DNA of 38,958 bases from a bacterium (lineage in GTDB: Bacteria; Eisenbacteria; RBG-16-71-46): the NCBI GenBank assembly GCA_043779265.1, contig JAYWEM010000096.1, positions 1-38,958 on the forward strand, given 5' to 3'. How positions within the stretch are numbered: the stretch's first letter is position 1; every line of letters starts with the position of its first letter. A program made the position numbers and the translations under genes. This document shows, one piece after another, positions 3,057-20,182 of this stretch. The notes beneath the pieces are model-generated. The model was not told the origin of the DNA and did not search any database. It worked only from the letters and a program-made list of their open reading frames with translations.

Positions 3057-4436
3057 TCAGTTGCCCGCCACCGTCACCGTCCCCACGCTGGCCTGCACCA
3101 TCATCGGCCGTGAGATCACGGTGCCGGCGAGCACCGAATAGCTCCCTGCGAACACCGAGAGCACGGCATTCGCAGGCACGGCGTTGGTACCCTCGAGGAA
3201 CGTGTTCCAGGGGCGCATGAGCGTGCCGCCCTCGGTCATCGGCATCGGGTGATTGTTGTCCACGTGCGTCGTGCCGGCGCCCAGGAAACCGTTGATCACA
3301 TTCTCCAGCGCATCCACCTCGAACGACGTCCCGGCGTTGGCGCCTCCGGTTGTCGTGCAGCCGGCATTCGTGTGGATGCCGAAACAGACGTTCGAAGTCT
3401 CCCAGATGACGGGCCCCCCCGAGTTGCCGCGCTCGGTGTCGACCGCGTAGTCCAGACGGATGTCGAGACCGGCCGCGACCTCACCAGCGAACGGCCCGGT
3501 GCTTGTCTGATTCGTCTGATTGGTCACACCGACATCGGTTCCGAACCCAGTGACGCGAGTGAGTGCATTCACGACTGGCAGCTCTCGTGTGATCCGGAAG
3601 GGCAGGCCGTACACCTGATGCGGCAGCAGGCCGGAGTTGGCATTGGCATTCACGCGGAACACGCACCAGTCCTTGCCCAACCCCTGCCCGGTTCCATCGA
3701 AGCGCCACTGGACGTTGTTCAAGTTGATCGGGAACTGGTCCTGCGGGGCGGCGGCCACCATCGTGCCGTTCGCCTGTGAGGCCGGGACGTTGAACTCGAC
3801 GACGCCGCTCAGGTCGAGGATCCCGTCAGGCAACATCGGGCCACCCTGGTCGGGATCGAGGTCCGCGCAGTGGCCCGCCGTCAGGAAGGCGCCATTGCCG
3901 ATGCGCCATGCGGTGCAGCCGATGTTGAAGATGCGCGCGACCCGATTGTCCGTCGAGGCCACACGGTCGTCGACGGTGCCACACTGCGACTCGGGCTCCG
4001 GAGGCATTCCCACGCCCACGATGGCGCCACGTACTCTCGCCACCACGGCCCGATCGCCCGGCGCCACGATGAGCTTCACGTCGACCCGGTCGCCATTGAA
4101 CACGGCCGACGTGTTCCCCCAGTCCTCGAGCGCGCGGGCATCGAACTGCTGCCAGTCCTGATTCCAATTGGAGCGGATCAGGATGCGACTCGAATCACCG
4201 AGTGAGCACTCGCCGAACACGACGCGCAGCCAGGGAGCCCCCGGCATCTCGATCGCGCCGAGGTCGACCTCGCGCGCGCCCTCACCGGCCTCGCCATCGA
4301 CGAGCCCCGAGGAGCGCGTCACGACCGTCGTGCGCCACAGCGGCGCCTGGCCGCTCGCCACCGCAATGCTCTCCGCTCCGAACGTCGCCACAACGACCAT
4401 CCACGCGATGCTGCAAGCCGAACGTGCTCTCATCAC
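3057..4436 (-). CDS. Secreted trypsin-like (S1) serine protease with N-terminal pro-region and short C-terminal 'PWNT' module
   Basis: Signal-like N-terminus; triad motifs CTAW..FLTAGHC (His), GKDWC (Asp), GNSGGP (Ser); QCGTVDDR at the likely pro/mature junction. Start overlaps the upstream stop. Confidence 0.9.
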   Translation of the reverse strand: MMRARSACSIAWMVVVATFGAESIAVASGQAPLWRTTVVTRSSGLVDGEAGEGAREVDLGAIEMPGAPWLRVVFGECSLGDSSRILIRSNWNQDWQQFDARALEDWGNTSAVFNGDRVDVKLIVAPGDRAVVARVRGAIVGVGMPPEPESQCGTVDDRVASTDNRVARIFNIGCTAWRIGNGAFLTAGHCADLDPDQGGPMLPDGILDLSGVVEFNVPASQANGTMVAAAPQDQFPINLNNVQWRFDGTGQGLGKDWCVFRVNANANSGLLPHQVYGLPFRITRELPVVNALTRVTGFGTDVGVTNQTNQTSTGPFAGEVAAGLDIRLDYAVDTERGNSGGPVIWETSNVCFGIHTNAGCTTTGGANAGTSFEVDALENVINGFLGAGTTHVDNNHPMPMTEGGTLMRPWNTFLEGTNAVPANAVLSVFAGSYSVLAGTVISRPMMVQASVGTVTVAGN

Positions 4437-6292
4437 GGCCCCCTCAGTTCCACAGTGCCACCGTCGGCGAAGACCATCATCGGCTTCGTGATCAAGCCAC
4501 CGTTGGTGTACACGCCCGCCTTCATCACCAGGTCGTTCCCCGGAAATGCGTCATTCACGGCCTCGCTGACGGTGTTCCACGGTCGCTGGGTCGTGCCGAA
4601 CTCGGAACCGAAGTGGGCGACGTCCGCATACACGGCGCGCGGCATGTAGCCGCACCAGAAGCGGAAGTCGCTGCCGTTCTCGCCGCCCCGGTTCGAGGCG
4701 TACATCCCGAAGTACCAGAAGCCCTGCGAGATCGGATCGACCGTGGCACCCGAGTAGTCGCCCCAACGATGCAGCGTCGTGGGCAGATCGGTGGTCGGAT
4801 GGCCCACGTACGCGGTGCCGGCCTGCACCGCGATGCTGGGGCCGAACGCGGGATCGTCCGCCGTGCGCGTTGCGAATCGGTAGTTCGCGAACTCGCCGGA
4901 GCCGGAGCGGCAATAGCCGAGGCCGAACTGGCCTCGCGAGTTCACTGCCACGTTGGGCCAGAAGTGGTAGTTGGCGCCGTCGGTGTAGTCGGACACCCAG
5001 GCCAGAGAGACCGTTGGCCACACGACGCTCAGGTGCACGACGCGCGCCGCACTCTGGGCTCCGCTTCCCACCGTGAGCGGCATCGTCAGTGTGTTGTTCC
5101 GGAAGTACAGACCCAGTTGACCCGCCCCGAAGTTGTCCGCCTGCAGCCGCGCGGGGCCTCCCGATTGCTGCGGGTTGGTGAAACCCGGCGGCGGCGTCGT
5201 GTCCACGGTGCGCCGCGTGAGCGTCGGGCCACCGACCGGAAAATTGCCGGGGAGGCTCACGCCCCACACGCTGATGCGCACGGTATTGGGCGGCGCGACC
5301 ACGCTCTGCCAGGCGGTCATGAACCCATCCACGCCGCCCGCCGGGATGTTGTGCACCTGCGCGACGCGTGTCAGGAACACCGGCTGGCTCGACTCCCCGA
5401 TGACATCACCATAGGTCCAGATGGTGACGGCCTGTCCGGCCACGAGAGCGGTCTTGTCCAGCACCCAGAGGGCATTGGAGTGGTTCGCCGTCGCCGGCGG
5501 AAGAGCGGCCCAGTCCGAGAACGAGATGTAGTTCCCCGTCAGATAGACCGCGCGCGGACCGAAGCCGAGATCTTCGTAGTCGATGCCCTCGCCATCCCAC
5601 TGGTTGGCCATCTGCCCGTAGACATACCAGCCCTGATTCGGATTGCTCGTGATGGAAACCGCGAGTGACCACACGGACTGACGGGCGTTCGGATGGATGT
5701 CGATCGCCATGAGATAGAAACGATTCGTGCCCTCGTCGAACACGACCTTGGGGTCGAAGTGGCCCTTCCAGTTGGCGGTGGCCCCGAGGAGCCCATCGAG
5801 ACTCGAGGTCCAGGTGCGCGTGCCCTGCTTGTCGTAGATGGACACGGTCGAGTTGAACGCGGCGACAAGGTGGGCCGGGCCCGCCGCGATCGTGCAGTCC
5901 CCTGGGACCCACCCGGCCACCTCCTGCACCGTGAAGTTCGTGGTCATGCGTGGCTGATAGGCGTACACCGCCTGGGTCGACTGGCGCGCGAGCGGTCCGT
6001 CGGAGGGCCTGGCGGAGTAAGCGGGCATGAGCGCTCCCAGCGCGCGCTCGGCGTACTCGGGCGAGTCGTTGGGCAGCGGCCATGATGGCTTGGGCTTGCC
6101 CGATGGGACCCGGAATCCATTGAAGCTCGGATCGAAGATCGCCAGTTGCCTCATCTCGACATCGCTCACCACTCGAGGCGTCACGGTGCGCAGCACCGGT
6201 GCCGCGTCGGGCGTCTGCGCGCGAGCATCCCGCACGCCGACCACGGCGAGCACAGCTGTGGTCAGCAGCGCCAATGGGAGAAACGCTCTCAT
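4433..6292 (-). CDS. Secreted RWGDY-type protein (probable beta-propeller) with C-terminal 'PWNT' module
   Basis: Signal peptide ending ARA-Q; motifs PGDCTIAAGP, FDPKVVFD, DYEDLG and HRWGDYSGATVDP; 619 aa; ATGA overlap with the upstream gene. Confidence 0.82.
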   Translation of the reverse strand: MRAFLPLALLTTAVLAVVGVRDARAQTPDAAPVLRTVTPRVVSDVEMRQLAIFDPSFNGFRVPSGKPKPSWPLPNDSPEYAERALGALMPAYSARPSDGPLARQSTQAVYAYQPRMTTNFTVQEVAGWVPGDCTIAAGPAHLVAAFNSTVSIYDKQGTRTWTSSLDGLLGATANWKGHFDPKVVFDEGTNRFYLMAIDIHPNARQSVWSLAVSITSNPNQGWYVYGQMANQWDGEGIDYEDLGFGPRAVYLTGNYISFSDWAALPPATANHSNALWVLDKTALVAGQAVTIWTYGDVIGESSQPVFLTRVAQVHNIPAGGVDGFMTAWQSVVAPPNTVRISVWGVSLPGNFPVGGPTLTRRTVDTTPPPGFTNPQQSGGPARLQADNFGAGQLGLYFRNNTLTMPLTVGSGAQSAARVVHLSVVWPTVSLAWVSDYTDGANYHFWPNVAVNSRGQFGLGYCRSGSGEFANYRFATRTADDPAFGPSIAVQAGTAYVGHPTTDLPTTLHRWGDYSGATVDPISQGFWYFGMYASNRGGENGSDFRFWCGYMPRAVYADVAHFGSEFGTTQRPWNTVSEAVNDAFPGNDLVMKAGVYTNGGLITKPMMVFADGGTVELRGP

Positions 6293-7740
6293 TGCAGGCT
6301 CACCAAGACGAGCACCATGCCGGTGCCGGACTCGAGCGCCGTCATCGCCTTGCCGAGCACCGCGCCGGGGGCACGGTCACGGTCCGACGCCTTCATCGCA
6401 TGTCCGGCGCGAGCCGACGTGGTGAGCAGATCGCCTGCTGAGATCGGCGCATCGGTGGCATCACACTTCACCCAGACGCGGCCGGTCAGGGCCACGGCAG
6501 CCGTGCCCTCGATACGCTCGTCCTTGCTGAGGATGACGCCCGCACTCAGATCGTTCGCGCCACTCACGACGCCCGCGACACGGTGCGAGTACGCCTCGTC
6601 GGACGTGCGCAGATGTCCGACCTGCGCCGGATCGATCGTCAGCACCGTGCCGGGCTCGGGGTTGCCGGCCACATCGAATCGCTCGGCGAGGTCGGCGCCA
6701 CCCACGATCTGCAGCGTCTTGACCCGCACGAGCCCCGCCGTGGCGTCGATCGCGATGCCGCCCGAGGGGCACGAGAACCGGCCGGCAGGCTTGGTGATGC
6801 TGGGCGAGGACGCGTAGATGCCCTCGTTGGGCGTCCCCAGGATCCCGTAGGTGCCCGCGCTCTTGCACTCGCCCGTGACTCCCCAGTTGGTCTGGCTCTC
6901 TCCCGACACGCCACGATCGTCCGTCGAACTGGCGTAGATACCGTTCGAGTTCGCGCTTCCGGTCAGTCCATGCACGTACAACGCCGCGCGGATGCCCGGC
7001 GTGAAGACGCTGCCGGTGGAGACGAACCGTCCGGCGGGGCCGACATTGTTCGCGGCGTCCACGGGATAGACCGGATTCGACATCTTGAACCCGAAGTTGC
7101 CCGCTGAGTAGTGCCTGTCGCTCCACTCGTCGTAGAGGCCGAACCCGCCGACGGCGTCGTTCTGAACGGCGAGTGCGGCGTAGTTGATGTTGTTGTTCTT
7201 GAGCCACAGCGGGTTGCCGCTGGCGCCGGAATCGATCATCAGTCTGCGGTCGACACGTGAAGCGGTACCGATTCCCACGTTCCCCGGATGAGTGATGCCG
7301 AACGTGTCGTTCGTCCACTGGCCGCCGCCCCCGCCGCCCGGCGCACTCAGTGCGTGCAGAGCGTAAGGGGCAGCGGCGAGCAACTGACGCGGCGCGAGCA
7401 GCGTGTAGTCGATCTCCTCGGCGGTCAGCACCTGCATCTCGAGCCACAGCGCCGTACCATCGAACACGCTGCCGAAGTCGAGCTCGACGGTGAACAATCC
7501 CTCGGTCACGACCACGCCTGACAGCGTCACATCGGCGCCCACCTGGTTGCCGGCAGCCGGATCGTCGAAGAGGCGGAAGAGCATCTCGGCTGTGCCGGCG
7601 TGGGGTGCTGCGTCCTTCTGCAGCTTGCCCTGGTAAGTGAAGTTGGTGCCGACAGGCGCGGCCGAGGAGATCGAGACTGCACAGCAGGCCGCGATCGCGA
7701 TCATCGCCGCGGCACGGAACATCCGATCGAGTCTGGACAT
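6289..7740 (-). CDS. Secreted tail-fibre-like protein: FTYQG-type N-terminal domain, fibre repeats, C-terminal peptidase G2-like intramolecular chaperone
   Basis: True start is likely ATG 7740 (SD GGGAG, followed by a signal peptide); 483 aa. NFTYQGKL..FRLFD..GLFTVELDFG..LWLE..PYALHA, a GNVGIGT fibre motif, and GADLAERF..VAGVVS..VALTGRV.VK..GDLLTTS..GHAM..LGKA at the C-terminus. Confidence 0.85.
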   Translation of the reverse strand: MSRLDRMFRAAAMIAIAACCAVSISSAAPVGTNFTYQGKLQKDAAPHAGTAEMLFRLFDDPAAGNQVGADVTLSGVVVTEGLFTVELDFGSVFDGTALWLEMQVLTAEEIDYTLLAPRQLLAAAPYALHALSAPGGGGGGQWTNDTFGITHPGNVGIGTASRVDRRLMIDSGASGNPLWLKNNNINYAALAVQNDAVGGFGLYDEWSDRHYSAGNFGFKMSNPVYPVDAANNVGPAGRFVSTGSVFTPGIRAALYVHGLTGSANSNGIYASSTDDRGVSGESQTNWGVTGECKSAGTYGILGTPNEGIYASSPSITKPAGRFSCPSGGIAIDATAGLVRVKTLQIVGGADLAERFDVAGNPEPGTVLTIDPAQVGHLRTSDEAYSHRVAGVVSGANDLSAGVILSKDERIEGTAAVALTGRVWVKCDATDAPISAGDLLTTSARAGHAMKASDRDRAPGAVLGKAMTALESGTGMVLVLVSLQ

Positions 7741-7768
7741 GGAGAACTCCCGTGAGTGAGGCGTTGAA

Positions 7769-8335
7769 TCAGCGAATGCGAATGAGTCGGAGCGTTGCGT
7801 GGGAATCACCGGCGCGGACCTTGGCGAAGTACATGCCCGGCCCGACCGGGTGGCCGTCGGCGTCGGCGCCATCCCAGATGGCGGTATGGCGCCCGGCACC
7901 CCTCGCGCCATCGACGAGGCGGCGGACGAGCCGGCCATCGACGCCGAAGAGCGCGACGCTCGCCTCGCGTGCCGAGGGCAGGTCGAACTGGATCGACGTG
8001 GAACCGCGGAACGGATTCCCCCCCGAGAGTCGCGCGGCGAACACGAGCGGGACGCCGCCCGGGTTCGTGCCGATCGACGTCGTCGGAGTCGAGGCCGGAT
8101 GCCAGAACCCGCCCGAGAGCGAGTAGGCGCCGCCCGCGAGCGAGCCGGCGTCAGCCTGGCCCGTCGTGCCGCCCACCGAGTAAGCGCCGCCGGTCGCGAA
8201 TGTCTGGCCGCCACCCGTGAGCGTGTTCCACTCGAGGTTGTAGGCGCCGCCCGACTGGGCATGGGCGAGGCTAGGCACCCCGAAGGCGAGAGTGGCGAGC
8301 AGGAGCAGTGGGCGAAGGGCGGTGGGCGGTCGCAT
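7769..8335 (-). CDS. Small secreted protein: Gly-rich 'GGFW' domain plus FlgD-Ig-like C-terminal domain
   Basis: SD GAGGAG; signal peptide ending AHA-Q; QSGGAYNLEWNTLTGGG..GQADAG..YSLSGGFW; then NPFRGST..GRLVRRL..WDG..PGMYF. Confidence 0.85.
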   Translation of the reverse strand: MRPPTALRPLLLLATLAFGVPSLAHAQSGGAYNLEWNTLTGGGQTFATGGAYSVGGTTGQADAGSLAGGAYSLSGGFWHPASTPTTSIGTNPGGVPLVFAARLSGGNPFRGSTSIQFDLPSAREASVALFGVDGRLVRRLVDGARGAGRHTAIWDGADADGHPVGPGMYFAKVRAGDSHATLRLIRIR

Positions 8336-8458: not shown

Positions 8459-11400
8459 TCAGCGCCAGTCGCCCGCCGCGACGAATGCCGCCCAGTGGAA
8501 CGGGTGGGTGTCGAGCCCGCGCTGCCGGCGGTCGCGGAGCACTTCGATGCAGGCCGTTCGCACCGACTCGGCCGTGTCGGCACCGCCGATCAGTCGCGCC
8601 GTGTAGAGCTGCAGCATCCAGGCCTTTGTGGCCTGATCATCCACCGCCCACAGGCTCATGACCATGGTCCGGAGTCCCGCTCGGCGGAACGCCCTCTGGA
8701 GCCCCTGCACCGCCTCGGTCCCGCTGGGATCGGAGAGTCCCGTCTCGCACGCCGAGAGCACCGCCCACTCGGTGCCCGTCAGGTCGAGCGACGTGATCTC
8801 CTCGGCGGTCAGGAAGCCATCGTCCGCCCCCTTCTCTCCTTCGACATTCGCGCCGGCCAGTGCGAGGCCGGGAAGTTGGGCGATTCGTCGTGCCGCGCTC
8901 GGGCGGCTTCCGCTCACGACTGCACCGATTGCGCGCAGGCCGGGCCCCGATGACGCGAGTCGCTCGCCGCCCAATGCGAATCCATGTGTCGCCACATGCA
9001 ACACGCGGCGCCCCGGCGCGAGACGCTTGAAGGCCGCCTCGCTCGCAGCCACTCCGGTGAACTCGATCACATCCGTTGCATCGGCCGAGCTCGAGGCTCG
9101 CCATAGCGACGCGATCTGCCCGACCTCGGCCGCCGTCTGGGGAAGCGGCTCGAATCGAAGTCGCGTCGAGTCCGACGGGCTCGTTCGCGTGGTCGTCCCG
9201 AACGTGAGCGCAAGCGGCGTCGAAGGAGCCGAGTCCTCCGCGCGCTCGAAGTCGGCGCCACCCAGCGCCAGCAGACCACGCCCGGCTCGTTCACCTTGTC
9301 CCCACGGGAGCAGGTCGCGTTCGGCGGTCAGCCGATGGAGTGTGGCGCCGCGCTCCACCCGATAGCCGCCACGGGGATCTGGCAGCGCCATGAAATTGAC
9401 CGCGTGCAGCGCGCCGTCGGGCACGACGAACACGCGCCGCGCGCCGCTCAGGAGCAGGGCCATCGGATCGAGCGCCAGTGAACGCACCGTGAGCCCGAGG
9501 GCGGTGCAGCGACGCTCCGCTGCGAGGGCCAGCCGTGCGTCTGCGGATGGCGGCGTGGCACACGCCTCGAGCCACCGGAAGATCGCGACCTCCAGCCGAG
9601 CCGCCGTACCGAGCGAGACGATGTCCGGTGCGCTCGCTCCCGCTCGGAGCACCAGCGCCGAGTAGCGCTGCGAACTCGACCGCGAGGAATCGGACTCGAT
9701 CGACTCGTTGAGACGGTCGCCCGGGAGTTCATGCCGGATGTAGGAGATCATCGCCGTGCCAGCTGGAAGTGCAGCGGCAACGCCGGCGTAGCCCGCATCG
9801 GAGCGTTGCAGGCCGAGCCCGAAATGCGCGCTTCGATCGGCCAGGGCCCGCTCGGCTGATTCTCGCCGCTGGCGAGCCTTGGCGACGAGCGAGTCCGGCG
9901 CGCGCTCCTGGCGCAGCGTCTCGACCAGTGCGCTCGAGAGTGCTTCGCGAGCCGCCTCGAGCTCCTGGACGGATTCGGCGAGCGATGGATCGTGGCTTGG
10001 CAACGCGCGGCGCTCATCCGCCAGCTGATCCAGCACGAGAAGACGCGCGCGCATGACGGCATCGGCCAACTCGACACGGGCCTCGGGCGCGATGTCGTCC
10101 GGCCCCACCGCAAGGGCGAGCATCACGTCGAGCCCCGATGCGCGACTGCGCTCGAGCGTCAGGGCCTCATGCTCCGAGAGCGAGCGAGCGCTCTGCCGCA
10201 TCACATCGAGGCTCGCAGCCTCGAGCCGGCGGGCATCCGCCCACGCCTCGGCGTGGAGCCCACGCTCGACGCGCACCGTCGCGCGATGGGCCAGGGCATC
10301 GAGCGTGTGCGGCGACGATGGGCCGAGCAGGCTGTCCGCCAATGAGAAGGCCCGCTCGAACGAACTGAGTGCGGCGAACAGGCGGCCGTCGGCGCGGGCG
10401 ATCGCGCCCTCGACTTTCCACGCCTCGATCAGGTCGAGCGCGAGACTCCCGAAGTTCGCGGAGTCCACGAGCGAGAGGGTCCGCTCGATCTCGTGCCGAG
10501 CCTCCTCGCGCTCTCCGGTCAACAGCATGGCCTGGGCGACTCGCGTGCCGTTCCATAGGCCATAGCCCGCATGGGGCCCGAACACCTTCTCGCGAAGCAC
10601 GCGAGCTTCCTCGAGGAATCGGCGGGCGCGGACGCCGTCTCCGATACCCAGACACGCGGAGCCGAGATTGTTGAGCGCGATGGAGAGGTCGAATGGAATC
10701 TGCCTCGGAGCGCCGCGCTGGATCGCCACCGCGCGCTCGTAAAGCGGCAGGGCGCGCTCGAAGTCACCCAGATTGTTCAGGGCGCTCCCCAGCGCGGACA
10801 TGGCGACGGCCACGACCGGATGATCGGGCCCGAACAGGCGCTCGCGGATCGCCAGCGCACGCTCGGCGAATCGGCGTTGCGCCACGTAGTCGCCGGCATC
10901 CGCCGCCGCCATGGCACTCAAGAACATCGTGGTGGCCAGATCGGGGTGTTCGCCACCGAGTGCGAGTTCCTGGATCTGCGCCGCGCGCGCGTACATCGAG
11001 CGAGCGCCTTGCAGATCACCTGCCAGCGCTCGGGCCCGCGCGAGATTGCGGCACGCCTGGCCGAGTTGCAGCGAGTCGGGCTTTGCCCTCGATTCGGCGA
11101 GCTGCACGACGCGGGCGAGTTCCTCGCAGGCGCGATCCCCCTCACGGCGCTCGGCGAAAACGTTCCCGAGCGTGCCGCGCAACTGGATCTCGATCGTCGT
11201 GTCGCGCTCGACGGAGGTCTCGTGAAGGAGCAGGGCCTCAGCGACCGTGGACTCGGAACGCGCCAACTGCTTGCTGACGCGTCGCGACTCGGCGAGCCAC
11301 GCGAGCGTCCGGACGACCGGCAGCACCTCCGGCCGGCGTTCGGATCGGCGAAGGGCGAGCGTGCGCGTGAAGATCGAGTCAGCGGCCGGGTACTCAGCGC

Positions 11401-11659
11401 GAGCCAGCCGGATGCGTCCGAGCAGCTCGAGGACATCGGCGGCATCAGCCGGACGAACACGCGGGTCCTCCGAGCGGCGCGCTGCGAGGCGCTCGGCGAG
11501 CGCGAGCAGCCCAGGGTCCGTCGGGCGGAGCGAGACGAACTGCGCTTTCAGTTGGGGCAGCGAGTCGGGTACGGCTCGCGCGCACCAGCCGGTTCCGGGC
11601 AGCACCGAGCCGAGCAGCATCACCACCAGGATCTGCGCACAGCCGAGGCGGGGTCTCAC
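8459..11659 (-). CDS. TPR-repeat CHAT-domain (caspase-like) protease with predicted signal peptide
   Basis: Multiple long TPRs (HPDLATT, HPVVAVA, IALNNLG). CHAT motifs VVPDGAL, LHVATHGF (His), VLSACETG (Cys), SLWAVDD and HPFHWAAF. Hydrophobic N-terminus. Confidence 0.93.
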   Translation of the reverse strand: MRPRLGCAQILVVMLLGSVLPGTGWCARAVPDSLPQLKAQFVSLRPTDPGLLALAERLAARRSEDPRVRPADAADVLELLGRIRLARAEYPAADSIFTRTLALRRSERRPEVLPVVRTLAWLAESRRVSKQLARSESTVAEALLLHETSVERDTTIEIQLRGTLGNVFAERREGDRACEELARVVQLAESRAKPDSLQLGQACRNLARARALAGDLQGARSMYARAAQIQELALGGEHPDLATTMFLSAMAAADAGDYVAQRRFAERALAIRERLFGPDHPVVAVAMSALGSALNNLGDFERALPLYERAVAIQRGAPRQIPFDLSIALNNLGSACLGIGDGVRARRFLEEARVLREKVFGPHAGYGLWNGTRVAQAMLLTGEREEARHEIERTLSLVDSANFGSLALDLIEAWKVEGAIARADGRLFAALSSFERAFSLADSLLGPSSPHTLDALAHRATVRVERGLHAEAWADARRLEAASLDVMRQSARSLSEHEALTLERSRASGLDVMLALAVGPDDIAPEARVELADAVMRARLLVLDQLADERRALPSHDPSLAESVQELEAAREALSSALVETLRQERAPDSLVAKARQRRESAERALADRSAHFGLGLQRSDAGYAGVAAALPAGTAMISYIRHELPGDRLNESIESDSSRSSSQRYSALVLRAGASAPDIVSLGTAARLEVAIFRWLEACATPPSADARLALAAERRCTALGLTVRSLALDPMALLLSGARRVFVVPDGALHAVNFMALPDPRGGYRVERGATLHRLTAERDLLPWGQGERAGRGLLALGGADFERAEDSAPSTPLALTFGTTTRTSPSDSTRLRFEPLPQTAAEVGQIASLWRASSSADATDVIEFTGVAASEAAFKRLAPGRRVLHVATHGFALGGERLASSGPGLRAIGAVVSGSRPSAARRIAQLPGLALAGANVEGEKGADDGFLTAEEITSLDLTGTEWAVLSACETGLSDPSGTEAVQGLQRAFRRAGLRTMVMSLWAVDDQATKAWMLQLYTARLIGGADTAESVRTACIEVLRDRRQRGLDTHPFHWAAFVAAGDWR

Positions 11660-11699
11660 GGGGCGTTCGCCTCATCGTCACCCGCCAGGACGCGCGGGG

Positions 11700-13514
11700 T
11701 CAGGGGACCGGGTTCTCCAGCACCAGCAGTCTCATCCAGACCGCGCGTCCCTCGGATGAGGTCGCCAAGTCGCGAGCGAGTGCCGAAAGGATGCCCGTTC
11801 GATCGCTCTGCTGCAATGACGCAGACTTCCGCACTCCCCCCACGCCGCGAAGGCGCGCGAGCGCATCGGCGGGCAGCGTCCGATAGGCGACCGGGGCATC
11901 CGCCGCTGCCTCCGGGATGGCAGCCACCGCCTCGGCCACCGGCGCGAGCGGCTTCCGGGAGGCCAGCAAGAGGAAGGTCTCGCGCCCACCCGCACTCGTC
12001 ACCTGCCACGTCAGTTGGCCTGCGCCGTCGCGGCCTGGCAGGCGATGCGGCGTCGCGGCGGCCAATGGATTGCCCGAGCCTCTTCCCGACAGCGGGAACA
12101 GCACGAACACCGCGCCGGTCTCATCCTCGCTCAACACGTACACGTGCACGATCTCTCTCGAATCCAGCTCGAGCGCCAGTTCGTCGCCGGGTGCGACCAG
12201 GTCCCCACTGCGCAGCACTTCGCGAGAACCCGCCGTGACTCGCAGCAGCGCGGCCGCCACCTCGGGCGCCCCCGCGGTCGCCACCGCCGGTGTGGCAGGG
12301 GTCGAGGTCGGTGAGGCTTCACTTGCGATGACATCGTCCGACAGCACGGTCGCAGGAGGCGCGCCCACGTTCGACTCGCGGCCAGCACGAGTGGCGAGCA
12401 GGGCCACCACCACGATCGCGGCCGCGGCCAGTCCCGCCAACGTCAGCCGGGAGCGGCGTCCAGCGCCGACGACTTCGTCCGCGTCCACAGCTTCGGGAGC
12501 CGCGATCGCCCGGGCGAGTGAACGCTCGAACTCGGCCATCGTCGCGAAGCGCCGCGCGCGATCGGGGTCGCAGGCGCGCTCGACCACCTCGACCATCGCC
12601 GCCGGTAGATCCGTGCGCGCATCCCGAAGCGAGACACGCTCACCGCGCTCGAGCCGTCCGCGCATCTCGTCGATCGAGCCAGGCTCGATCGGGTAGCGCG
12701 CCGTGAGCAGTCGGTAGAGCACGATGCCGAGCGAGTACACATCCGAACGCACATCCGGCGCCTCGCCGGCCAGCACCTCGGGTGCCATGAACAGCGGCGT
12801 CCCATAGGCGATCAGGTCGGTGACGCGCGCATCCTGAGCGCTGCCGAAGTCCATCAGCACGATTCGGCCCGAGCGACTCGCCGAGCCGGAAGCGGAGCCG
12901 CCTTCTCGCATCACGTTGCGCGTTGTGACGTCCCCGTGCAGCAGCCCGGTCGCGTGCACCGCCGCGAGTGCACTGCAAAGATCGGCCCCGACACCGGCGG
13001 CCTCTCGTGGCCCCAGCGGTCCCTGCGACGTGATCCACTGTTCGAGCGTGCTGCCGTCGATCAACTCGGTCCACAGCCCCGCGCGGCCCTCGTGCTCGTC
13101 CGCCCCCAGGATCGAGAGGACATGCGGATGGCGCACCCGAGCGAGCCGGCGAGCCTCCTCGATCCAGCGCGACGTGCCGAACGAGGGCACCCCCAAGTCG
13201 GCGCGGCGCAGCTTGAGCGCCACCTCTCGCTGCAGCGTCGGGTCCCAGGCCCGATGGATCTCGGCGAACGAGCCCTCACCGATCCGCTCGAGCGCCTGCA
13301 GCGTCCCCCACGTGAACAGCACGCCCGATGGGACGGCTTCGCGGGCACTCGTCAGCGCCGCCTGCAGCGCGGCGATCTCCTGCAATCGCGCCAGTACCGG
13401 GCGTCGTTCGGGCGTGCGGACCTGCTCACGCTCCCAGTCGACGGGCGTGCGATCGGCGACGGCACCCGCCACGTCCACCAGAGGCGCATCCGCTTCGGGT
13501 GTTTCGTCAGCCAC
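11700..13514 (-). CDS. Membrane Ser/Thr kinase with C-terminal DUF4384-like extracytoplasmic domain
   Basis: IGEGSF, VALK, HGDVTTRN, DFG, GTPLFMAPE and SDVYSLG; one TM helix (LTLAGLAAAAIVVVALLA); C-terminal PGDELALEL..VYVL..GAVFVLFP..GRETFLLLAS resembling DUF4384. Start overlaps the ECF stop. Confidence 0.9.
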   Translation of the reverse strand: MADETPEADAPLVDVAGAVADRTPVDWEREQVRTPERRPVLARLQEIAALQAALTSAREAVPSGVLFTWGTLQALERIGEGSFAEIHRAWDPTLQREVALKLRRADLGVPSFGTSRWIEEARRLARVRHPHVLSILGADEHEGRAGLWTELIDGSTLEQWITSQGPLGPREAAGVGADLCSALAAVHATGLLHGDVTTRNVMREGGSASGSASRSGRIVLMDFGSAQDARVTDLIAYGTPLFMAPEVLAGEAPDVRSDVYSLGIVLYRLLTARYPIEPGSIDEMRGRLERGERVSLRDARTDLPAAMVEVVERACDPDRARRFATMAEFERSLARAIAAPEAVDADEVVGAGRRSRLTLAGLAAAAIVVVALLATRAGRESNVGAPPATVLSDDVIASEASPTSTPATPAVATAGAPEVAAALLRVTAGSREVLRSGDLVAPGDELALELDSREIVHVYVLSEDETGAVFVLFPLSGRGSGNPLAAATPHRLPGRDGAGQLTWQVTSAGGRETFLLLASRKPLAPVAEAVAAIPEAAADAPVAYRTLPADALARLRGVGGVRKSASLQQSDRTGILSALARDLATSSEGRAVWMRLLVLENPVP

Positions 13515-14082
13515 GGGGCTCCTCCATCGTCGCGGCGAGTTGGGCGATCGCCCGTGCCACCATCATGCGAGCCGCGTTCGCGGTGCTCTTGCCCGCCGCC
13601 TCGGCGATCTGCTCGTAGCTGCATCCCATCTCGACGCGCATGAACACCGCCTCCTGCTGTTCCTCGCTCAGGCGGTCGAAGGCCGCCTCGTAGCGATCGA
13701 GCATGTCCCTGCCCAGAGCGGACTCGAGCGGTGAAGGCCCCGGGTCCTGCAGCCCCTCGCCGATCTCCTCCTGCTGCCCCCGGGTCGCCGCCCGAGCGAT
13801 CTCGTCGCGCATGGCGTTGATGAGGATGCGCCGGAGGTAGGCGAGGAACGCCCCCTCGTGGCGGGGCTCGAACCTCTCCAATTGCTTCAACACCCTGAGC
13901 ATCGTGATCTGCACAAGATCATCGGTGTCGGCGAATCCCCGAGCCTTGGCGGGCAGCCGCCCATGCGCCCATCGGCGCAACTGGGGCAGGTAGCGCTGGA
14001 GCAGCCGATCGCGCGCGGCCTCGTCCCCCCCGCGGATACGCTGCAGGAGGACCGCGGTGGACTCGGGGCTCGAGGGGTTCAT
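13507..14082 (-). CDS. ECF sigma factor of the kinase-associated type
   Basis: GDEAARDRLLQRY, DTDDLVQ and FLAYLRRILIN..RD (sigma2); LSEEQQEAV..SYEQIAE (sigma4); 191 aa. Confidence 0.93.
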   Translation of the reverse strand: MNPSSPESTAVLLQRIRGGDEAARDRLLQRYLPQLRRWAHGRLPAKARGFADTDDLVQITMLRVLKQLERFEPRHEGAFLAYLRRILINAMRDEIARAATRGQQEEIGEGLQDPGPSPLESALGRDMLDRYEAAFDRLSEEQQEAVFMRVEMGCSYEQIAEAAGKSTANAARMMVARAIAQLAATMEEPRG

Positions 14083-19432: not shown

Positions 19433-20182
19433 ATGCCGGATCCCCAGTCCCAGATGGTGATGTGGGTCAACAGCATCGCCCAGACCGCGACCGCCAACGG
19501 CGGCACCGTGGTGATGAAGTACTCCCAGTCGCTGCCGCCGACGAGCACACTCATCGGCATGTTCGGCGCGACCAAGGGCGGCATCTGCCAGGCGCTCACG
19601 AACAAGTGGATCGCCGAGCACGCCGCCGGCGGCAGCCTGTGGAACTGGTTGTGCAGTTCGAGTGGCCAAGTGCAGCCGAGCAAGATCTCGAACCTCATGA
19701 TGAATTTCATCGACTCGGCGTCGATGAGCGCACCGGGTGGCATCGACCGGCAGAAACTGATCTCCGAGAAGTACCTGTTCCAATACGGAGTCATCCGCCG
19801 GACGGACATCGTCTCTGGTGAGCGGCTCTATCTGGAGGGCATGGGGAACCTCGCACCCAACCCGGCCTACGGCGCCACGGTCGCCAAGGCGGTCGTCGGG
19901 CAGGGCCTCAAGAACTCAGGCGGCTGCTACCGCATGATCAGCTTCAAGGGAACCGGCGGCGGCCATGTCGTGGCGGCGTGGGTGGCCGAGGACGTGGCGT
20001 TCTTCGACTCCAACTTCGGCGAGTTCTGGTTCGAGAAGCCGGCGAATTTCGCCAAGTGGTTCCCGATGTTCTGGCAGAAGGCCGGATACGGCCAGATGTT
20101 CGGCGGCTGCCAGATTCGCGATTTCGCCATGAAGAAGGGTCACGTCACGGCGCGCCCCGGCAATCAGATGGGGCGCGTCTGA
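19433..20182 (+). CDS. YopT/AvrPphB-like (peptidase C58) cysteine protease domain protein
   Basis: SD AGGAGG; GICQALTNKW (Cys), GHVVAA (His) and FFDSNFGEFWF (Asp) in the order and spacing typical of C58; no signal peptide. Confidence 0.78.
   Translation: MPDPQSQMVMWVNSIAQTATANGGTVVMKYSQSLPPTSTLIGMFGATKGGICQALTNKWIAEHAAGGSLWNWLCSSSGQVQPSKISNLMMNFIDSASMSAPGGIDRQKLISEKYLFQYGVIRRTDIVSGERLYLEGMGNLAPNPAYGATVAKAVVGQGLKNSGGCYRMISFKGTGGGHVVAAWVAEDVAFFDSNFGEFWFEKPANFAKWFPMFWQKAGYGQMFGGCQIRDFAMKKGHVTARPGNQMGRV

Follow-up and report, generated by a model that had tools for sequence, protein, structure and literature searches.

Mosaic adhesive trimers (MATs) of Bdellovibrio have a signal peptide, a conserved beta-rich N-domain of about 130 aa, a variable fibre, and a swappable tip or self-cleaving chaperone. 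The N-domain presumably binds a surface element not yet identified, and the available part of the paper leaves open what holds the fibres on the cell (Caulton et al. 2024, PMC10769870). In Patescibacteria, a tail-fibre-like gene is conserved near the operon for Pam pili; the available part of that preprint treats PamT as a single immunoglobulin (Ig)-like domain, proposes no fibre at the tip, and leaves open how the pili recognise their host (Troman et al. 2026, PMC13278184). In this study, a fibre gene and a small partner gene of a probable Eisenbacteria genome were analysed (GenBank assembly GCA_043779265.1, contig JAYWEM010000096.1, positions 1 to 38,958; this whole stretch is called the window). 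The fibre is MAT-like and has a YQG base domain; the partner joins a GGFW domain to a tail like those of the type IX secretion system (T9SS). The two families were found side by side in several lineages. The GGFW protein is probably an adapter, which would bind the YQG base and supply the export and anchoring signal for the fibre in trans.

Both genes were on the minus strand, co-oriented, with the partner upstream of the fibre. The features were as follows, with both signal peptides called by eye:

6289..7740 (-), fibre gene, 483 aa (P0001), MAT-like, predicted trimeric
6292..6693 (-), phi29 gp12 (peptidase G2)-type C-terminal chaperone, from D350; E353 is the putative catalytic residue
6694..7335 (-), Gly-rich variable shaft and tip, of low model confidence as a monomer
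7336..7659 (-), YQG base domain, Ig-like beta sandwich, PF30789 by Atlas structure match
7660..7740 (-), fibre signal peptide
7741..7768 (-), 28-bp intergenic gap between fibre and partner
7769..8335 (-), partner (putative adapter) gene, 188 aa (P0002)
7772..8041 (-), FlgD/T9SS type-A-like C-terminal domain
8096..8257 (-), GGFW domain, about 54 aa, Gly-rich, three loose GxYxL repeats
8258..8335 (-), partner signal peptide (AHA/Q)

The anatomy described in an earlier note on this DNA was confirmed: the 483-aa fibre has a signal peptide, FTYQG at residue 34 and DLAERF at residue 350, and the gene 28 bp upstream has GGFW at residue 75 and a tail matching FlgD_ig and TIGR04183. The fibre likely starts with MSRLD at 7740 and stops at 6289; a longer open reading frame (ORF) from 8262 would overlap the partner gene in another frame.

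The linkage of the two genes was investigated across genomes by hidden Markov model (HMM) matches. The closest named loci were from Candidatus Eisenbacteria, the probable group of the window. Eight of nine GTDB loci with a GGFW domain had a fibre base in the vicinity (Eisenbacteria, Dokdonella, Chloroflexota, Planctomycetota, and Binatia), and the ninth had just 1.2 kb upstream. Among 151 genomes of the own phylum, GGFW occurred in 51 and the base in 78. A GGFW match was counted as paired when a fibre base lay no more than 5 kb away on its own strand. Pairing was found for 54/57 strong (E ≤ 1e-10) and 74/95 total GGFW matches, with none on the opposite strand, against about 0.003 per match expected by chance. 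Gene order was even, with the partner upstream in 37 cases and downstream in 37. Counted from the base side, the partner stood beside 72/82 strong matches, a figure inflated because the base alignment, A2, was built from GGFW-adjacent fibres, and beside 81 of the 150 base matches listed; 62 weaker matches were outside these 150.

Because the base alignment had been seeded from GGFW neighbours, 40 loci from the 69 unpaired base matches of the own phylum were examined. A diverged partner was present in 23 of the 40, with no decoy matches, and several more encoded a still more diverged Gly/Ser-rich N-terminus with a FlgD tail, as judged by eye. In 20 partner-seeded loci, 11 had a base and 6 had the partner only (five near contig ends); one more had been chosen for its base, and two had neither.

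Similar linkage was found elsewhere. In 121 Chloroflexota genomes, each family occurred in 16 and both in 15, with pairing of 42/51 GGFW and 47/63 base matches. In 79 loci from a base-seeded metagenome scan, a partner was present in 41, all on the same strand, with no decoy matches; among loci with full context the partner was present in 27/39. In Flammeovirga (locus KM029_RS25050/25045), only 8 bp separate a fibre gene from a downstream gene for a T9SS protein, whose N-terminus looks similar by eye but has no HMM match. The earlier note had stated that the two families are often adjacent in other phyla; the neighbourhood statistics bore this out for the own phylum, Chloroflexota, and metagenomes, but not as a universal rule.

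The two proteins also varied together. In 56 own-phylum pairs, distances of the partner domain and of the base correlated with a Spearman coefficient of 0.40 (maximum in shuffles 0.14), and 0.38 was retained once the tail signal was removed. The correlation of the partner domain with its own tail (0.18) was weaker than that with the fibre base. Fibre and partner subtypes agreed in 51/56 pairs. The earlier note had argued from the G2 chaperone, and this step needs revision: pairing is not dependent on G2, because S74-type and chaperone-less fibres have the same partner. The general reason would therefore lie in the layout of the fibre, with its variable tip at the C-terminus and its base at the N-terminus.

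The relation of the fibre to MAT was investigated. Among 86 aligned base domains, 47 matched NF053851 (Bdello_MAT_N) at E ≤ 0.01 (best 1.5e-11); the scores given were 24–38 bits, where the cut-off is 60, and covered positions 2–78 of 162. The base domain of the window fibre itself had no NF053851 match at E 0.01. Since the window domain had no match and the scores given for its relatives were below the cut-off, the fibre is classed as MAT-like but a non-member: it is homologous to MAT as a distant relative. The chaperone of the window fibre is gp12-type, whereas that of MAT is S74, and no dedicated neighbouring partner of MAT is described in the available part of the paper (PMC10769870).

The AlphaFold2 monomer model of the fibre (87-sequence alignment) was confident in the N- and C-domains, with a block predicted local distance difference test score (pLDDT) mostly of 84–98, and of low confidence in the middle (about 40–68). 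The low confidence would fit a middle that folds only as a trimer, probably an intertwined beta trimer. Atlas structure matches assigned the aligned base part to PF30789 in all 10 rows; these PF30789 proteins came from several phyla and had many different C-termini. Within the whole-fibre model, the best structural rows for the base domain were generic Ig-like folds (Z up to 7.5). The full fibre had no Pfam or PHROG family match and one chance-level NCBIfam row (E 0.18), and profiles of the fibre, base, and GGFW domain retrieved chance rows only from the PDB sequences. By crude motif, 120 fibre homologues had 46 G2-like, 15 S74-like, and 59 other C-termini; kelch, collagen, collar, and C1q domains were among those of the relatives. 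Variable C-terminal tips on a shared base, by which MATs are recognised, were therefore found among the homologues. The earlier note had reported no lipobox. A lipobox-like IAAC is present in the fibre signal peptide but is not conserved; it is probably due to chance, because a similar motif occurs in only 3/34 close sequences, and a lipoprotein anchor on the fibre was rejected.

The C-domain was compared with known structures. Its top match among 48,161 representative chains was the phi29 gp12 C-terminal fragment 3gqh (Z 14.2, root-mean-square deviation (rmsd) 1.9, 109 residues aligned, 27% identity), with model residues 323–454 on chain residues 692–854 and model residue 323 (D350) on D692. 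The next-best row (Z 12.9) was a viral capsid-region protein. A 13-sequence profile of the C-domain also placed 3gqh first but weakly (E 0.36), with DLAE aligned with DFAE. In the D-x-A-E motif at the domain start, D, A, and E were invariant in 13/13 sequences, and Ala preceded D in 42/47 homologues. The fold is thus that of gp12 (peptidase G2, PF11962; PDB 3GQH/3SUC), in which E695 is the catalytic residue, but the window domain is shorter. PF11962 matched neither the fibre protein nor anything else in the genome, with a positive Bacillus subtilis control. The G2 label of the earlier note was supported by the fold and the weak profile match, but not by the family model. Self-cleavage of the C-domain is no more than likely, because the G2 Pfam model gives no match and capsid decoration proteins share the fold.

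The partner tail matched FlgD_ig (Pfam, E 3.4e-10) and TIGR04183 (24.2 bits against a cut-off of 23), and by sequence FlgD_ig scored higher. In the partner model the tail was confident and the GGFW domain alone was of low confidence (pLDDT 50–67). The best structural match of the tail was the PorU C-terminal domain (Z 10.8, rmsd 3.0, 95 aligned), with unrelated Ig folds close behind; the GGFW part was barely covered by this fold search. The GGFW family comprised 10,163 clusters at 50% identity, and the copies of Pfam and NCBIfam that were searched contained no model for it.

The tails were classified on the best 150 representatives. Pfam dockerin was found in 16, dockerin_GC in 11, and FlgD/T9SS in 4; crude motif classes, with names coined here, gave 23 FYRL-type, 20 xLPLI-type, 13 short, and 41 other tails. 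Other partners ended in a hydrophobic stretch followed by basic residues, or had pilin-like bodies. The lineage-specific tails mentioned in the earlier note were therefore seen as T9SS-like, dockerin, and recurring short motifs. When longer GGFW proteins were sought, 2 were found. One of the 150 representatives matched the Sortase family; P0233 carries the GGFW domain on a 287-aa protein with a sortase-like C-terminal part. GGFW-like domains were also observed inside large proteins of 700–3100 aa near fibre genes, once in tandem (L143 4439–4789, L144 9488–9643, L145 8661–8828, and L147 6792–6938).

T9SS-type tails are primarily export signals, and in Bacteroidota, PorU removes the tail and attaches the cargo to the surface. 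The genome encodes SprA and PorU above cut-off and PorV-family proteins (family over cut-off); the search covered these three components. It also has 143 T9SS-like tail matches, 141 of them C-terminal, which is a large T9SS-type secretome (about 140 tails) outside Bacteroidota. Because these components and tails are encoded, the partner tail is plausibly readable by a T9SS. A PorU gene adjoining a PorV-family gene, and a SprA homologue, were located at C127 11224–15833 and C46 3011–8947. The partner resembles T9SS type-A cargo (TIGR04183) in its tail over cut-off, its PorU-C-domain-like fold, and the encoded SprA/PorV/PorU. It differs in its cargo, a domain of 54 aa without evident activity, and in that the tail would act in trans if it exported or anchored another protein that has no tail. 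A literature listing showed no clear report of such a use.

The following route is proposed for the window pair. The fibre and partner would cross the inner membrane by Sec. The fibre would trimerise with help from the gp12-type C-domain, which may cut itself near A349/D350 via E353. The GGFW domain would fold on binding the base, possibly with one adapter per trimer and one repeat per subunit. SprA/PorV would read the adapter tail, and the fibre would be co-exported or captured outside; PorU would then cut off the tail and join the adapter to the cell surface, as it does with cargo in Bacteroidota. In other phyla, the interface would be unchanged and the tails would be those of each lineage. 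The adapter reading would explain the display of fibres without an anchor of their own. The two-component display proposed in the earlier note was thus supported in part, by the adjacency, the varying tails, the gp12 fold, and the T9SS machinery; its G2-based reasoning needs revision, and the adjacency does not extend to every fibre. The fibre is of a known kind, and the adapter mechanism was not found in the literature outside subscription papers. The fibre/partner pair was likewise not described there, part of the MAT and Pam supplements being also outside the search, nor in the available parts of PMC12750041 and PMC13147790.

Several results weigh against the adapter. Linkage and co-variation also arise from two genes merely travelling together; kin genomes in the counts are not independent, and shared descent can contribute to co-variation. 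Alignment A2 was built from fibres beside GGFW matches, and over all 150 listed fibre matches the partner figure falls to 81/150. In 101 Planctomycetota genomes, the base occurred in 22 and a GGFW HMM match in 5. Of 20 Planctomycetota loci examined, 1 had a GGFW HMM match and ten more had a Ser-rich variant only (8 motif-picked seeds, 2 by their profile). The profile of this variant cross-matched known members and no decoys, with an hhalign probability of 61% (E 7.9e-5) to the main profile. One Phycisphaerales genome, a fragmented assembly, had 21 bases, 11 partners, and 7 pairs, leaving 14/21 fibres without a neighbour; as a guess, adapters might be shared between its fibres. In 301 Pseudomonadota genomes, the base occurred in 10 and strong GGFW matches in 2; weak matches in six genomes (E ≥ 2e-5) were treated as noise. 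Twenty further loci (16 from Pseudomonadota) gave a partner in 10, on the opposite strand in four of them. Among full-context metagenome loci, 12/39 had no partner match. The three-repeat signal (offset 19) was weak, being reached by 73/2000 shuffles, and no GGFW/base fusion occurred among the loci and proteins collected. The chaperone fold also occurs in non-catalytic capsid decoration proteins (Z 8–13, up to 12.9).

Three other explanations were considered. The partner might be an export or folding escort only: bound to the base, it would carry the fibre or keep it stable during secretion and then be released, so that the fibres are shed or otherwise anchored. The primary role of T9SS-type tails in export, the low confidence of the partner domain alone, and the existence of orphan fibres agree with an escort. 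However, many tails look like retention devices (dockerins, hydrophobic and basic tails, pilin-like bodies), and the GGFW domain also lies inside very large surface proteins; an escort is considered unlikely.

An independent or self-polymerising surface protein (Gly/Ser-rich, curli-like) that is co-transcribed with the fibre and shares its role in adhesion or matrix but does not bind the base would account for the Gly-rich repeats, the missing fusion, and the partners without an adjoining fibre (21/95 at first pass in the own phylum, 9/51 in Chloroflexota). Yet the first-pass orphans mostly resolved, with a fibre in 11/20 partner-seeded loci and the rest mostly near contig ends, and subtypes agreed in 51/56 pairs although gene order was shuffled. 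This explanation is regarded as rather improbable. A phage or mobile-element remnant, consisting of a receptor-binding fibre and an assembly factor with no cell-surface role, is suggested by the phage-type fold of the C-domain. Signal peptides on both genes, a host sorting tail on the partner, and intact pairs recurring across the phylum argue against it, and no relative was found in viral contigs or, by single-sequence queries, in phage records. No phage family was found among the 31 window ORFs in Pfam, in line with the earlier note; 4 of these ORFs were also scanned in PHROGs. A remnant is very unlikely.

The adapter was further compared with Pam pili. The first approximately 80 positions of the PamT model (NF058579) matched the GGFW family. 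The window partner matched positions 11–80 only (E 0.0024, 17.3 bits against a cut-off of 240). Among 150 GGFW representatives, 19 matched this N-terminal part (best 2.2e-8), and the best Ser-rich variant gave 3.6e-7. All GGFW scores were far below the PamT cut-off, the window partner has no pilin body, and no pam family matched among the 6 window proteins scanned. In two pam-like operons from metagenomes (L217 2010–8462 and L224 2072–9851), the gene for a PamR homologue is followed by a small gene, a gene for a protein with a GGFW-like head, three genes, and a terminal YQG fibre gene whose product matches Bdello_MAT_N. The three intervening genes appeared by eye to be one pilin-like and two membrane-tailed chaperone-like genes, with no HMM match. 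This gene order suggests a putative fibre at the Pam pilus tip.

A broader reading is that the YQG/MAT base and the GGFW or 'SxNY' domain form a universal plug and socket, by which phage-like trimeric adhesins are fitted to the display routes of different lineages. This is possible but doubtful. One short three-repeat domain would dock the fibre trimer and would be grafted onto the T9SS tail in Eisenbacteria and Bacteroidota, onto the tip pilin of Pam pili in Patescibacteria, or onto dockerins or membrane tails. The Patescibacteria, which are epibionts, would then recognise their host by a fibre adhesin held at the pilus tip via PamT; in Bdellovibrio, the missing MAT anchor would be a member of the GGFW family. 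The fibre/partner pair names one small candidate for both MAT anchoring and Pam host recognition. If the adapter reading is true, display by a T9SS tail can extend in trans to another protein, and phage-derived adhesins can be reused on very different envelopes through one interface.

Other genes in the window were also noted. Two secreted-looking genes follow the fibre on the minus strand with overlapping stop and start codons: 4433–6292 encodes 619 aa without a match in a Pfam search, and 3057–4436 encodes a trypsin-like protein of 459 aa. Both proteins share a similar ending of about 60 aa (RPWNT...GTV) in place of a FlgD tail. In L167 and L168, both without a GGFW match, the gene that follows the fibre has an ending of this kind too; it possibly marks further clients or another sorting domain. 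Directly upstream of the pair (8459–14082, minus strand) are genes for an ECF sigma factor, a Ser/Thr kinase with DUF4384, and a TPR-CHAT protein, a possible regulator. A CHAT-like neighbour likewise precedes the pair in L002. A protein with a Peptidase_C58-family domain (Pfam E 1.6e-16) is encoded at 19433–20182 on the plus strand.

Two other pairs were observed. On Herpetosiphon aurantiacus plasmid pHAU01, an unannotated GGFW gene (L101 7960–8243) lies between Haur_5099, a fibre ending in a hydrophobic-plus-basic tail, and Haur_5100. The genome of the window has a second fibre/partner pair with the fibre first (G000:C69 24597–26169; L040 4610–6164). Both genes of this pair are of a diverged subtype, no G2-type chaperone is evident, and its fibre matches Bdello_MAT_N weakly.

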